From a virus (taxonomy: Duplodnaviria > Caudoviricetes): a DNA stretch of 42,193 nucleotides. Shown one piece after another: positions 10,535 through 20,118 of this stretch; within the stretch, counting starts at the first letter, position 1, and each line of letters begins with the position of its first letter. The stretch lies in IMG/VR virus record IMGVR_UViG_3300017910_000112, positions 1-42,193 of that record. The stretch is one strand, 5' to 3'. The notes beneath the pieces were generated by a model, which saw nothing but the letters and a program-made list of their open reading frames with translations, was not told where the DNA came from and did not search any database. A program made the position numbers and the translations under genes.

Positions 10535-10642
10535 TTAAGCAGCTTTGTCGTGCTTGACACCTCTATAAATCATCTGCTTGTTAGTTTTAACAGGCTTCTG
10601 ACTTTTTTGAGGAGCTACTTTTGTACCTCTATAAGTAAACAC
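10535..10642 (-). CDS. YRG-repeat peptide (DUF4278-like, 35 aa)
   Basis: GTG start after GGAGGTG SD; MFTYRGTKVAPQKSQKPVKTNKQMIYRGVKHDKAA; two YRG motifs. Confidence 0.8.
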   Translation of the reverse strand: MFTYRGTKVAPQKSQKPVKTNKQMIYRGVKHDKAA

Positions 10643-10693
10643 ATTCACCTCCAGTTTGCAATTAAATACAATGTACTTACGTACATCACCCAT

Positions 10694-10744
10694 TGCGTTC
10701 CTTCGATATTTCTATCTACTTCCGGCTTTTACAAGCTGAACGAA
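10694..10744 (-). ncRNA. glutamine riboswitch (glnA RNA motif)
   Basis: CGTTC-A-GCTT(GTAA)AAGC-CGGAAGTA-GATA(GAAA)TATC-GAAG-GAACG-CA: three-stem junction with the conserved CGGAAGUA / GAAGGAACG elements. Confidence 0.85.
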
Positions 10745-11465: not shown

Positions 11466-11665
11466 TAGTGTAATACCTCTGCACTATCTGCTTTATCTAT
11501 ATAATGCATTAAACCACCTTCAGTTACTATTTCAACAAACTCACCTACTAATATTAGGTTGTTGTATTTAGCAGCTTTTTCAGCTTCTTCCCAGTTTAGT
11601 GCAAGTATGTTTGGTCCTGCGTATATCTTACCATTATCTTCAACTTCTGTCAGATATATCTTCAT
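11465..11665 (-). CDS. hypothetical protein
   Basis: 66 aa; coupled overlaps with both neighbours. Confidence 0.65.
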   Translation of the reverse strand: MKIYLTEVEDNGKIYAGPNILALNWEEAEKAAKYNNLILVGEFVEIVTEGGLMHYIDKADSAEVLH

Positions 11666-12077
11666 AATCTTCCTCTGGCAATTCTATAGGTGCTTTATCG
11701 GGCATTAAAAAGATACCTGATGAGTTCACGCTATGATTAACATCTACCTTATCAACTTTAGAAACTCCAACTCTATCTAATAGTGTTTGAGCTGCTGCAA
11801 GTTTATTATTAGCTTGTACGATGGGTCTAGATGATTCCATAATCTCTACAAGCTTGAAGGCTGCCTTAGGTGCAGAATTTGCGAGTATCTCATTCGTGAG
11901 TTCAAGTATCTCATTCTTTAGAGACTTTACGACATGATGATAATGGCTAGAGTATCCAGCCAACTCGGCAGCCTGTTTAGCGTCTCCTTGTGTTTCTACT
12001 AGGTAGTCTAAAAAGGATTGCTGTTTTTCTGTTAGTTGCCTTTTAGTTTCATTAGCAACTGTTGGTAATATTGCCAT
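11640..12077 (-). CDS. putative terminase small subunit
   Basis: LTEKQQSFL...AKQAAELAGYS HTH pattern typical of TerS; first gene of the late operon. Confidence 0.7.
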   Translation of the reverse strand: MAILPTVANETKRQLTEKQQSFLDYLVETQGDAKQAAELAGYSSHYHHVVKSLKNEILELTNEILANSAPKAAFKLVEIMESSRPIVQANNKLAAAQTLLDRVGVSKVDKVDVNHSVNSSGIFLMPDKAPIELPEEDYEDISDRS

Positions 12078-12083
12078 TATCTT

Positions 12084-12111
12084 AGTATATAGTCGTAAAT
12101 AAATTTGTCAA
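12084..12111 (-). promoter_or_regulatory. sigma70-type promoter for the late operon
   Basis: TTGACA (12111-12106), 16 nt, TATACT (12089-12084), 6 nt before the terS ATG. Confidence 0.65.
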
Positions 12112-12116
12112 GTCTA

Positions 12117-12145
12117 TTGACAAAATGGATTCTCAACACTATAAT
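12117..12145 (+). promoter_or_regulatory. consensus sigma70 promoter
   Basis: TTGACA-17 nt-TATAAT, perfect consensus. Confidence 0.8.
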
Positions 12146-13128
12146 AACTTTAGTACCCCCCGGGGTACAATAGTATCCCCACAACAACCAACACCTTTTG
12201 AGTTGACCCCTTATGGGGTTTCAAAGACCCTTATAGAAAACCCCTCCTCTACACCTAAAATCCTTATATACTTTATAGCCCGACTGTAAACTAGAAAGTT
12301 ACAGGGTTGAGGCTATCTGGTTGACATGGGTTTTTTGTAATTTTGTATGAGTATTATATATATATGGGTAGAGGGTACACTGGCGACCTGCCTAGCCCTC
12401 AAGAGTTTTTATAAATCTTCGCCAGTATGCAGAACCAAGCTAAGAGAACCATAGAAACTTTGTAGTCTTTATGCGACCTACAGGAGCTAGAAGTTCTTCC
12501 TAGTACTTGGCAATCTCTACATCTTAGAAGAAACTTTTTAGACTTTAAAGTAACCACTTATGGCAACTAAGAACTTCTAACTCCTCCTTCACTTCGTATC
12601 TCCAGCAAACCAAAGTAGGGGCTATGGTCCTCTTAGCTACTTAGAAAAAACTTGTAATTTTCCTAGTTTACAATTCTCATAAGATTTTAAAGTCTTATAT
12701 GTCACCAAGTTTTGGTTCTGCATTTTCCCTCTACCCATATCATCCCAATGCTGACAGATTAACGACCTTTGTTGAATTGGTTATTTTCTTTTGGACTCAT
12801 CTAGTTCAGAAGCACATTACATCTTCCTCGGTCAGTTCAATTTTCATGCCAACCTATCGACATCCTTCTTTAAGCTTCTTTTCTGCAACTTAACCTTTAC
12901 CTCCGCAGATTACAGAGTAAGACTTTTCATACCATTGCCATACTTTAGGATTTGTATAATCTATAAATACTATCCGATTTAATTACAACTAGACTACCAG
13001 AGCCATAAAAACTATAAAGGGTTTCACAAGCTACTAAATTCTAAGCTCGAAGACTCGCTAAGACTTTAGTGCCCTTTACAGTTCTTATTAGACTCTGCTA
13101 GTAAGTTTACATTAAACACGGAGTATTT

Positions 13129-13335
13129 ATGATTATACATCTAAACTATGACAATGATGAAACTTACTACTGTATCTACGAAGGACAGGCTAAGCTTCTC
13201 ATTGAAAAGAAGTTTAATGAAGGACTTACTCTGGTTGGATTCAAGATTAAATCTGACCATGAGAAAGATGGTAATGTACATTCTAATTTAGATGAGTACA
13301 TTAGAAACTTAACCAATTCAGTCAAAGGAGGTTAA
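13129..13335 (+). CDS. hypothetical early protein (in right arm of rod)
   Basis: 68 aa; GGAG SD. Confidence 0.7.
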   Translation: MIIHLNYDNDETYYCIYEGQAKLLIEKKFNEGLTLVGFKIKSDHEKDGNVHSNLDEYIRNLTNSVKGG

Positions 13336-13336
13336 T

Positions 13337-13633
13337 ATGACAGATTGGGATAAAATCGCAGAGGAAAAGTCTGCAAAACCGGCAACTTGGGGACAAGTTA
13401 ATAAAATGGCTTATGAGTTTGCAATACAGAAAAATTGCAAGTTTCATTATAAACAGCTAAGAGGGCACTTCGCTACATACTTTGGTCTTACTGAAGATTC
13501 AAAGCCGAAGCAGAAGCAATACTTAGTTGCTCATAAGTTGGTTAAATTAGCATTGGCTAAAAAGCCACTTCCTAAGAAGCATGAGACTGCAATTCTCAAG
13601 TACTTGGAATCTCTTCAAGACACTGTAGTCTAA
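13337..13633 (+). CDS. hypothetical early protein (in right arm of rod)
   Basis: 98 aa; AAGGAGG SD; 'PATWGQV' motif. Confidence 0.75.
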   Translation: MTDWDKIAEEKSAKPATWGQVNKMAYEFAIQKNCKFHYKQLRGHFATYFGLTEDSKPKQKQYLVAHKLVKLALAKKPLPKKHETAILKYLESLQDTVV

Positions 13634-13637
13634 CCTA

Positions 13638-13681
13638 AAGACTCCCAAGTTAAATTAATAACTTAGCTTGGGAGTTTTTTT
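13638..13681 (+). terminator. Rho-independent terminator
   Basis: GACTCCCAAGTTAA...TTAGCTTGGGAGTT followed by a T-run. Confidence 0.8.
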
Positions 13682-13844
13682 ATGCTCAGATTTATTTTTA
13701 TAAGGACACTAAAGTGGCTTTTTTTTGACTCTTGGTGCTAGTCAGCTCACCAAGTTAAATCTTCGAGAGAGTTTAAAATTTGAGTGTAGAGTTGAGGCAA
13801 GGAATTTAAAAACTATGGCGAGTGTTGAGGCAATAAAACTAAAA

Positions 13845-13944
13845 AAGGTACATAAAATTAAACTGTACCTTAAATTTAACTGTACCTTTAAACTATTTTT
13901 AACTGTACCTTTTTCTGTACCTTTGTATAAAATATCTGTACCTT
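13845..13944. repeat. iteron-like CTGTACCTT repeats
   Basis: Five direct copies (13863, 13880, 13903, 13915, 13936) and one inverted (13845), followed by an AT-rich tract. Confidence 0.75.
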
Positions 13945-13990
13945 TAATTAAATTTAAACAATCATAAAATATTTATTAATAATTATTAAA

Positions 13991-14039
13991 ATTATTATTC
14001 TAAATTTGGGGTTGACAAGGGTGGTAGACTGTTCCCAGA
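13991..14039 (+). promoter_or_regulatory. 49-bp repeated promoter-like element, copy 1
   Basis: ATTATTATTCTAAATTTGGGGTTGACAAGGGTGGTAGACTGTTCCCAGA; 4 differences from copy 2. Confidence 0.65.
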
Positions 14040-14401: not shown

Positions 14402-14653
14402 ATGTTTAAAACACACAAAGTTAAATTTATAGATTTTTATTCAAAAAGTAATAATGGTTCTTACAGTTGGTTTGAGAACTTTCCAATTCAAGATTGGAAA
14501 GACCAAGAACTACTTGATTACTTTTGGGAGATTACTAAAGTTCAAAGTGAACTAAAACCAAACCCTGTACCCTATCGTGACTTAGTAAATTTAATAGTTG
14601 AAATAGACAGGAGAGGGCTAGTTAATAGTCAACAACATATTAAAAATAAATAA
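14402..14653 (+). CDS. hypothetical early protein
   Basis: 83 aa; GGAG SD. Confidence 0.7.
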   Translation: MFKTHKVKFIDFYSKSNNGSYSWFENFPIQDWKDQELLDYFWEITKVQSELKPNPVPYRDLVNLIVEIDRRGLVNSQQHIKNK

Positions 14654-14676
14654 ATAATCTTTAAAGACTATTTAAG

Positions 14677-14725
14677 ATTATTATTCTAAGTTTGGGGTTG
14701 ACAGGGGTGGTAAACTGTTCGCAGA
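14677..14725 (+). promoter_or_regulatory. 49-bp repeated promoter-like element, copy 2
   Basis: ATTATTATTCTAAGTTTGGGGTTGACAGGGGTGGTAAACTGTTCGCAGA. Confidence 0.65.
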
Positions 14726-19788: not shown

Positions 19789-20118
19789 ATGAGGAAACTT
19801 ATGATAAACTTTTTTAAACAATTATTTTCTACTAACCCAGATGCCAAAGAAGAAGAAAATTTTAATCTTACTTATTTAGATTCTAGGCTAGAAGAAATAA
19901 ATAATAAACTAGATGATACTGAATACAGAATAGATGATTTAGAAGGTAAAGACTTCGATGACATTGAGTACAGAATAGAAAACTTAGAAGGTAGAGACTT
20001 CGATGACATTGAGTACAGAATAGAAAACTTAGAGGGTCAGGACTTTTACAGCCTTGAGGAAAAAGTAGAAGACCTAGAAGAGACTATTAAAAAACTATTA
20101 AAGAAGGAGGTAGCGTGA
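19789..20118 (+). CDS. acidic coiled-coil protein with 14-aa tandem repeats
   Basis: (D)IEYRIENLEG(K/R/Q)DF x3. Confidence 0.7.
   Translation: MRKLMINFFKQLFSTNPDAKEEENFNLTYLDSRLEEINNKLDDTEYRIDDLEGKDFDDIEYRIENLEGRDFDDIEYRIENLEGQDFYSLEEKVEDLEETIKKLLKKEVA
19921..20046 (+). repeat. 42-bp tandem repeat x3 (in frame)
   Basis: GAGTACAGAATAGAAAACTTAGAAGGTAGAGACTTCGATGACATT-type unit. Confidence 0.85.

Follow-up and report, generated by a model that had tools for sequence, protein, structure and literature searches.

A gene-length, strand-polarized fold-back mirrors a two-gene cassette in a podovirus-type genome and its relatives

The window analyzed here is the whole of IMG/VR record IMGVR_UViG_3300017910_000112, 42,193 nucleotides in length. 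It carries a podovirus-type genome that encodes a T7-like primase/helicase, a family-A polymerase, SSB, ribonucleotide reductase, an exonuclease, terminase, portal, and capsid. The nearest cultured terminases are those of HTVC103P, HTVC104P, and HTVC115P (TerL identity 62-66%), and the window is an HTVC103P-like marine podovirus. Read from terS, the locus of interest comprises back-to-back promoters, an inverted GTWAACYAG pair, a conserved G-rich motif, a long fold-back that we call the rod, repeats with an AT-rich tract, and the other early genes:

11640..12077 (-): terS, terminase small subunit (Pfam Terminase_2, PHROG 51/2538), the anchor for collecting relatives
12084..12145 (no strand assigned): back-to-back sigma-70-type promoters, TTGACA-16-TATACT toward terS (-) and TTGACA-17-TATAAT toward the rod (+)
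12286..12325 (no strand assigned): inverted pair of GT[AT]AAC[CT]AG-type sites, 12286-12294 on + and 12317-12325 on -
12355..12392 (+): conserved motif TATATATATATGGGTAGAGGG..GGCGACCTGCC at the outer edge of the rod, found with and without a rod
12361..12740 (no strand assigned): stretch of the outer left arm that can fold on itself instead (z about -7 to -9), also hiding the conserved motif
12379..13046 (-): non-coding mirror arm, whose minus-strand reading is a frameshifted, ~80% copy of the cassette sense strand
12663..12671 (-): third site of the GTAAACTAG type, within the mirror arm, far from the apex here and near it in 22 of 32 relatives
13047..13056 (no strand assigned): apical loop of the rod
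13057..13128 (+): cassette leader, with the RBS GGAG at 13120-13123
13129..13335 (+): ORF A, 68 aa, of a mostly acidic small alpha/beta protein family (predicted)
13337..13633 (+): ORF B, 98 aa, of a basic helical protein family (pI 9.4-9.9; 96 representatives)
13637..13682 (+): hairpin with a T-run, inside the mirrored stretch and unlisted by the terminator scan
13788..14005 (no strand assigned): origin-like region right of the rod, with two copies of TTGAGG, AACTGTACCTT iterons at 13858-13945, and an AT-rich tract

Neither cassette protein falls in a Pfam or PHROG family. ORF A has 57 homologs and a confident model (pLDDT 86), for which Foldseek returned no match at E ≤ 0.001 in the PDB and viral libraries; the top PDB rows are YkzG, an RNA-polymerase-binding protein (E 0.15), and designed proteins. 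The best hit of a VIA search was likewise a designed protein (Z 6.1, rmsd 1.9, 56 residues aligned) and gave no assignment. Identity between ORF B of the window and that of most relatives is only 20-31%, and the low-confidence model of the protein (pLDDT 61) has no Foldseek or Atlas match. A tblastn search of 50,697 phage records and a single-sequence scan of GTDB genomes found no match to or relative of ORF B. The leader carries a weak candidate promoter (TTTACA in the sense strand, TTTATA-16-TAGTCT in the mirror), and the hairpin and T-run at 13637-13682 are likely the intrinsic terminator of the cassette.

The flanks of the rod are conserved in their own right. The rightward TTGACA is present in 80 of 80 matched loci, rod-less ones included, and just after the start of that promoter lies a conserved palindrome centered on CCCCCCGGG (12156-12171 in the window) that recurs in all relatives shown. 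The inverted GT[AT]AAC[CT]AG-type pair likely represents protein-binding sites, and its + member stands 48-80 nt ahead of the conserved motif in most relatives. We infer that TATATATATATGGGTAGAGGG..GGCGACCTGCC is a candidate packaging or terminus signal and a module junction. Among 32 relatives, the tract right of the rod contains TTGAGG in 29 and, in 19, boxes matching TTWTNCACA, a pattern that we take to describe DnaA-type sites; these boxes make the tract a likely origin of replication. The initial annotation had expected an origin or genome ends at the rod. An origin-like region does adjoin it on the right; contig ends, in contrast, show no sharp pile-up that would mark a terminus. An end within 1 kb is seen in 15 of 55 truncated terS loci on the early side and in 7 of 54 on the late side, and 11 of 50 metagenome contigs stop 18-138 nt ahead of the conserved motif, patterns compatible with strain branch points.

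Several other features of the window were recorded alongside. An 87-nt repeat (13954-14039 and 14640-14725, 82% identity) contains TTGACA.GGGTGGTA.ACT, its two units likely being copies of one early promoter whose -10 element is extended, and a 79-nt direct repeat (73%) lies at 19912-20080 within ORF 19789-20118. Among the late small genes, a glutamine (glnA) riboswitch at 10692-10744 (-) exceeds the Rfam gathering score and directly precedes ORF 10535-10693 (-), which encodes 52 aa with a weak DUF4278 match. GATC, GGCC, GCGC, and CGCG have zero occurrences in the 42-kb window. GATC is also missing from nine of eleven relatives (G002-G005, G010-G014) but occurs 71 times in pieces of G001, differences that suggest different host restriction or methylation pressure.

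The initial annotation described 12379-13046 as antiparallel-complementary to 13057-13755, and alignment bears this out. Positions 12200-13050, set against 13051-13950 in reverse complement, score 557.5 (200 dinucleotide shuffles, 180±12, maximum 239), and global alignment of the two arms under five scoring schemes gives 79-83% Watson-Crick pairs over 620-630 columns. The pairing of the ends (12379 with 13755) and each of eight 9-11-mer anchors named there map to their proposed partners, and the left arm was rightly judged unable to encode the proteins, as it has no ORF longer than 33 codons in the genes' sense. The helix breaks, put at every 5-12 bp, call for no additional selection, for helix lengths are geometrically distributed over 32 rods and reach 26 bp in relatives, which leaves selection against long helices unsupported. 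In a 2-kb scan of the window, the rod scores 410 and everything else at most 41, making it the sole fold-back of such size. An assembly fold-back, already considered unlikely, is ruled out by the ~20% divergence and indels between the arms and by single contigs of independent DNA runs that cross the rod (12200-13759 in X3, 12370-13889 in X11).

Folding of both strands, one of the checks originally recommended, predicts a more stable minus strand at 12341-13800 under either parameter set (RNA, -577 vs. -486 kcal/mol; DNA, -284 vs. -252 kcal/mol for minus and plus, respectively). The plus-strand RNA likewise forms a rod (12400-13399, z -19) that covers both RBSs. The self-fold at 12361-12740, a feature absent from the initial annotation, competes with the rod and is strong (z ≤ -4.6) in 6 of 18 full-rod representatives.

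To collect relatives, we scanned IMG/VR with terS and the conserved motif, which yielded 157 loci with the motif among 185 (some contigs twice); the 114 motif loci with at least 1.5 kb beyond the motif fall into 54 clusters at 90%. The inverted arm recurs in these related phages: among the 54 distinct relatives, 32 have a full rod, 10 a short rod, and 12 none. Full rods begin 36-86 nt and finish 1140-1390 nt past the motif start, spanning 1.1-1.35 kb from just beyond the conserved motif to just beyond the terminator, and short rods cover the leader and part of ORF A. Cassette profiles detect both genes in 32/32 full rods and ORF B in 10/10 short rods; the rod-less relatives have ORF B alone in two cases and neither gene in ten. 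A fold-back accordingly accompanies the cassette genes in 42 of 44 relatives and occurs in none of the ten that lack them. A metagenome scan gave the same rod-cassette pattern, mostly in the same lineages. The full-rod state changes at least seven times on the terS tree, and phages with near-identical terS can differ in it, implying that the module is exchanged as a unit.

Identity between the arms is 75-88% in all 32 full rods, with a longest perfect helix of 26 bp. No second fold-back scoring at least 70 was found in eleven near-complete relatives, and the cultured phages HTVC103P and HTVC115P have no rod (scores 33-81). In blastn searches, the rod region matched no cultured phage and the window rod matched none of its relatives' rods. 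Reverse transcriptase and tyrosine integrase are absent from 5/5 complete rod-bearing relatives. A comparison of five rod-bearing with four rod-less genomes revealed no large gene unique to the former besides the cassette; three small or medium early ORFs are also specific to them and may reflect lineage. Cassette-less relatives hold 1-2 kb of non-coding DNA in the slot, with no long fold-back. In five such loci (L010, L011, L022, L030, and L158), ~1.7 kb without RBS-led ORFs, lying ~40-1800 nt past the conserved motif, forms several separate hairpins, among them a 120-nt hairpin with the GTAAACTTG motif, and is possibly another structured element in the same slot. A 1738-nt metagenome contig (L242) carries the conserved motif twice, 519 nt apart, the duplicated stretch being joined into terS via a short shared word; this is either a rearranged genome or an assembly chimera.

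The initial annotation also proposed that the pairing is under selection, and comparison of the arms across phages supports this. In 32/32 rods, the best fit of a left arm is to the right arm of the same phage (median score 410, vs. -4 across phages). The left arms of sister phages are orthologous and 75-87% identical, so mirrors are inherited rather than re-made. At 677 ungapped right-arm differences, scored in 11 disjoint sister pairs by our own four-way alignments, the left arm is compensated in 202 cases, reversed in 13, unchanged in 292, and mixed in 170; it differs at 57% of these sites vs. 16% elsewhere. In the nine closest pairs (excluding the two most diverged), compensations fall between retained shared mismatches with a median spacing of 16 columns, 48 of 109 gaps being at most 12, and this interspersion speaks against copying in long tracts. 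The three codon positions have equal mismatch rates (0.177, 0.175, and 0.171). The own-arm fit, the compensations, and the equal codon-position rates rule out neutral decay of a duplicate. Taken together, these sequence comparisons show a pairing maintained by selection through compensating point changes.

The mismatches are unevenly distributed between the strands. A by-eye tally had given 22 A.C to 5 G.T on the plus strand; formal alignment of the window upholds the direction at a smaller ratio, 33-41 A.C against 13-16 G.T (binomial p 0.001-0.008). In related lineages, 27 of 32 rods have more A.C than G.T on the early strand (907 vs. 336 in total), and five rods lack the excess. Isolated mismatches on the terS (template) strand (n = 380) comprise 134 G.T, 57 G.G, 55 G.A, 43 C.T, 42 T.T, 25 A.A, 24 A.C, and no C.C. 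The polarity in 27 rods and the 57 G.G against zero C.C support the earlier proposal that the minus strand is the folded molecule. Its description as wobble-tuned holds insofar as G.T is favored and proves too narrow, since G.G and G.A are favored as well. A genome-wide strand mutation bias was considered and rejected because four-fold sites show no skew in the needed direction, and deamination cannot cause an asymmetry in which G.G over C.C and G.A over C.T are transversions. Within the mirrored genes, C occupies 41% of NNY codons, compared with 26% downstream and 22% in the unmirrored ORF B of short rods, an enrichment that places G on the template strand.

Whether the fold forms in single-stranded DNA or in RNA had been left open. 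We modeled the choice of mismatch at 236 sites in 20 representatives of related lineages, with energies uncalibrated against known DNA or RNA folds. DNA nearest-neighbor energies gave a log-likelihood of -231, RNA energies -244, and a plain, composition-only preference for G -239; the DNA-RNA difference ranged from 2 to 22 in a lineage bootstrap. When the G preference was added, the DNA term persisted and the RNA term vanished. Diagnostic loops (GNA triloops, GCGAAGC, UUCG, and GNRA) show no strand excess. The mismatch spectrum favors, and does not settle on, single-stranded DNA rather than RNA as the folded molecule.

Transcript data bear on the same strand. In metatranscriptome X20, a 159-nt contig (depth 5.35) joins 13212-13322 (+) to 12771-12724 (-), and the joint falls at exact rod partners, as 12771 pairs with 13323. 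Among 87 contigs, no other joint between opposite strands occurs in 20 kb, and three DNA runs lack this one. A cDNA snap-back on a minus-strand template spanning both arms explains this joint, and the template may have been RNA or single-stranded DNA; as one contig from one run, the chimera fits the minus strand in either case. Phage genes are unevenly covered in X20, and nothing of the phage was found in RNA runs X22-X24.

Most mirrors, read on the terS strand, contain TTG[ATC]CA, a 17-nt spacer, the hexamer nnnnGT, and then AAAC[CT]AG, opposite the ORF A leader. The stretch from -35 to -13 is paired at 83% of positions and that from -12 to +1 at 58%. T stands at -7 in 25 of 31 mirrors (16 of 31 in the comparison), and only 13 of 31 carry both -11A and -7T. 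In 22 of 32 rods, the strict motif stands 32-73 nt to the left of the apex, and no right arm has it; the apex motif is missing from the window and from L005, L012, L019, L077, and L078. At the apex of L057 (cf. L122), a mirror TTGACA that is 8 nt too distant from the motif in the duplex is accommodated by a fold that bulges out those 8 nt. By a generic sigma-70 score, the mirror is better in 15 of 32 rods (means 6.0 vs. 5.8), and several right arms possess a fair promoter of their own. Two further copies of the mirror motif, beside the conserved G-rich motif, have no -35 element, so the motif may be a plain binding site. That the mirror supplies the non-template strand of a pre-opened promoter is only suggested by these patterns.

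We propose that the rod is a pseudo-duplex transcription unit on single-stranded DNA, a reading to which we give slightly less than an even chance. It starts from what the comparisons show, namely the pairing, its compensating maintenance, its tie to the cassette, and its strand polarity. The genes' template strand would fold back on itself, the mirror would replace the coding strand, and host RNA polymerase would read the whole unit, from promoter through both genes to terminator, off one folded strand. Since a bare single strand leaves an RNA:DNA hybrid, a partner strand would displace the mRNA, and mirroring of the whole unit may serve both this displacement and termination. The single-stranded state could arise at the adjacent origin as the displaced or lagging template of a leftward fork, which would displace exactly the minus strand, or, alternatively, by 5′-to-3′ resection if a genome end lies at the conserved motif. 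An imperfect match may keep the duplex genome from cruciform extrusion or recombination, and short rods would be a promoter-only form comparable to Frpo (see below). Such a unit explains which strand folds, why the spectrum is DNA-like, why the rod goes with the cassette, and why it ends just past the terminator. Against it, we count the 12 of 54 relatives and the two cultured HTVC103P-type phages that live without a rod, the lack of a sigma-70 score advantage, the right-arm promoters, the motif without a -35, the five rods without polarity, the phages (the window included) without the apex motif, and the X20 chimera, for which a minus-strand RNA is the best explanation. Somewhat doubtful, in our estimate, is a conditional operon, in which the duplex would be rebuilt only when the template strand loses its partner and the proteins would respond to the state of the DNA; the trigger could be a strand displaced at the origin or an entering genome end resected by a nuclease.

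Two alternatives also place the fold on the minus strand, and we judge each to be unlikely. A minus-strand RNA across both arms, antisense joined to a sense-like mirror, could form a 1.3-kb rod, by which antisense against the cassette would be stored or released. Snap-back on such an RNA would explain the X20 joint, and G.U is the commonest mismatch; that joint, however, is one contig in one run whose library may be contaminated with DNA, and, opposite G, the frequency of G.G (11.1%) is close to that of G.T (12.2%). RNA energies add nothing after the G preference, unpaired bases are not A-rich, RNA tetraloops are not in excess, no positionally fixed minus-strand promoter lies beyond the rod, and no Rfam family matches the window rod or six relatives. 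The other alternative is a minus-strand ssDNA fold for DNA metabolism, such as a giant single-strand origin or end cap, with the genes paired through position only. DNA-type polarity would be equally expected, origin-like repeats and DnaA-type boxes abut the rod, cassette-less relatives keep short hairpins with the same motif, and the phage encodes its own primase/helicase, family-A polymerase, SSB, and exonuclease. Yet long rods are confined to phages with the cassette and stop at its terminator, and the 1-2 kb of non-coding DNA in cassette-less relatives has no long fold-back.

Two further explanations fit the data poorly. In one, which we consider very improbable, a read-through transcript from the 12117-12145 promoter would turn the mirror into a cis-antisense that silences both genes late in infection. 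That conserved strong promoter does aim into the rod, the plus-strand RNA rod covers both RBSs, and the left-arm self-fold could be a switch. Pairing on the plus strand would, however, favor A.C, C.C, and C.U and avoid G.G (57 C.C vs. 0 G.G), opposite to stability; the spectrum thus favors the strand opposite to the mRNA-sense one on which a silencing RNA would be optimized, and the promoter is equally conserved without the cassette. The other, scarcely credible, is an inverted duplicate with no function, whose similarity would be due to template switching or repeated re-duplication and whose polarity would come from strand-biased mutation. Template switching on DNA could have produced the X20 joint, the plus-strand T-to-C excess matches deamination of an exposed minus strand, and the module is swapped among phages. 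Against this stand arms held at 75-88% identity in every full rod with no perfect helix beyond 26 bp, point-like compensations in inherited left arms, and transversions that lie beyond deamination. The pseudo-duplex transcription unit remains the reading we prefer.

If that reading is correct, a double-stranded DNA virus would control genes by exposure of a genome strand, at the cost of a 650-base shadow that tracks every gene change. That a dsDNA phage maintains a shadow of two coding genes, gene-length and strand-specific, is in itself unexpected as a design. Were the DNA fold confirmed, more than 1 kb of a specific strand would have to be exposed in a regular step under selection, pointing to an undescribed stage of entry, replication, or packaging. 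The rods also form a natural data set, with hundreds of compensated changes and a mismatch spectrum able to report a DNA or an RNA fold, and the element can be tested in vitro without phage culture.

Several known systems share part of this design. The sso and ssi elements of rolling-circle plasmids and ssDNA phages are about 100-300 nt long, non-coding, and without gene mirroring. Like the rod, they are strand-specific, imperfect DNA hairpins beside an origin, and they engage host RNA polymerase or primase. Obelisks and viroid-like rod RNAs also form a rod of ~1 kb with ORFs on one side and a non-coding complement on the other. The whole-element rod-like fold of Obelisks is present here; they are, however, circular RNA replicons with Oblin proteins, and our rod is no RNA-only replicon, as it occupies a fixed site in a DNA phage and is found in DNA runs. 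It carries no Rfam ribozyme, and five complete relatives contain no reverse transcriptase.

HTVC103P-type pelagiphages, among the most abundant marine phage groups and related to the rod carriers, share their genome plan with the window and resemble it in the promoter and motif layout upstream of terS (10.1101/2019.12.14.876532); unlike the window, HTVC103P and HTVC115P have no rod. The main text of that paper does not mention "inverted," "terminal repeat," or "non-coding" (10.1101/2019.12.14.876532). The hairpin promoters of N4 virion RNA polymerase resemble the rod in using template-strand DNA structure for early transcription in a podovirus and in facing the problem of RNA displacement: on a single-stranded template, the transcript stays in an RNA:DNA hybrid unless it is displaced by some factor (PMC4496689). 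N4 hairpins differ in having few base pairs, a phage polymerase, and SSB as the displacing factor (PMC4496689). No phage RNA polymerase was detected among the window proteins scanned, and PF00940 matched 0/5 complete relatives, in a search whose control profile matched nowhere either.

The closest likeness is to Frpo/ssi elements situated in conjugative plasmids' leading regions, where host polymerase uses folded ssDNA and an imperfect template-strand fold mimics a duplex before small early genes (PMC11541004). The rod's template strand likewise makes an imperfect stem-loop. The Frpo fold has -35/-10-like elements; the corresponding TTGnCA-17-nnnnGT is found in most mirrors, has no score advantage, and is weak in the window. 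Frpo comprises a promoter only and was sought in intergenic regions of 50-350 bp, whereas the rod spans promoter, two ORFs, and terminator over 1.1-1.4 kb and, unlike Frpo, co-evolves with coding sequence (PMC11541004). Its carriers also differ, as the Frpo plasmid enters as ssDNA by conjugation and the rod resides in a tailed dsDNA phage with terminase, portal, and capsid that is not known to enter in single-stranded form. By carrier and size the rod falls outside Frpo, and it would work in a Frpo-like manner if the pseudo-duplex reading holds. The initial annotation knew of no described element of such size and design in tailed phages, and our search of mainly open-access literature likewise found no published description.
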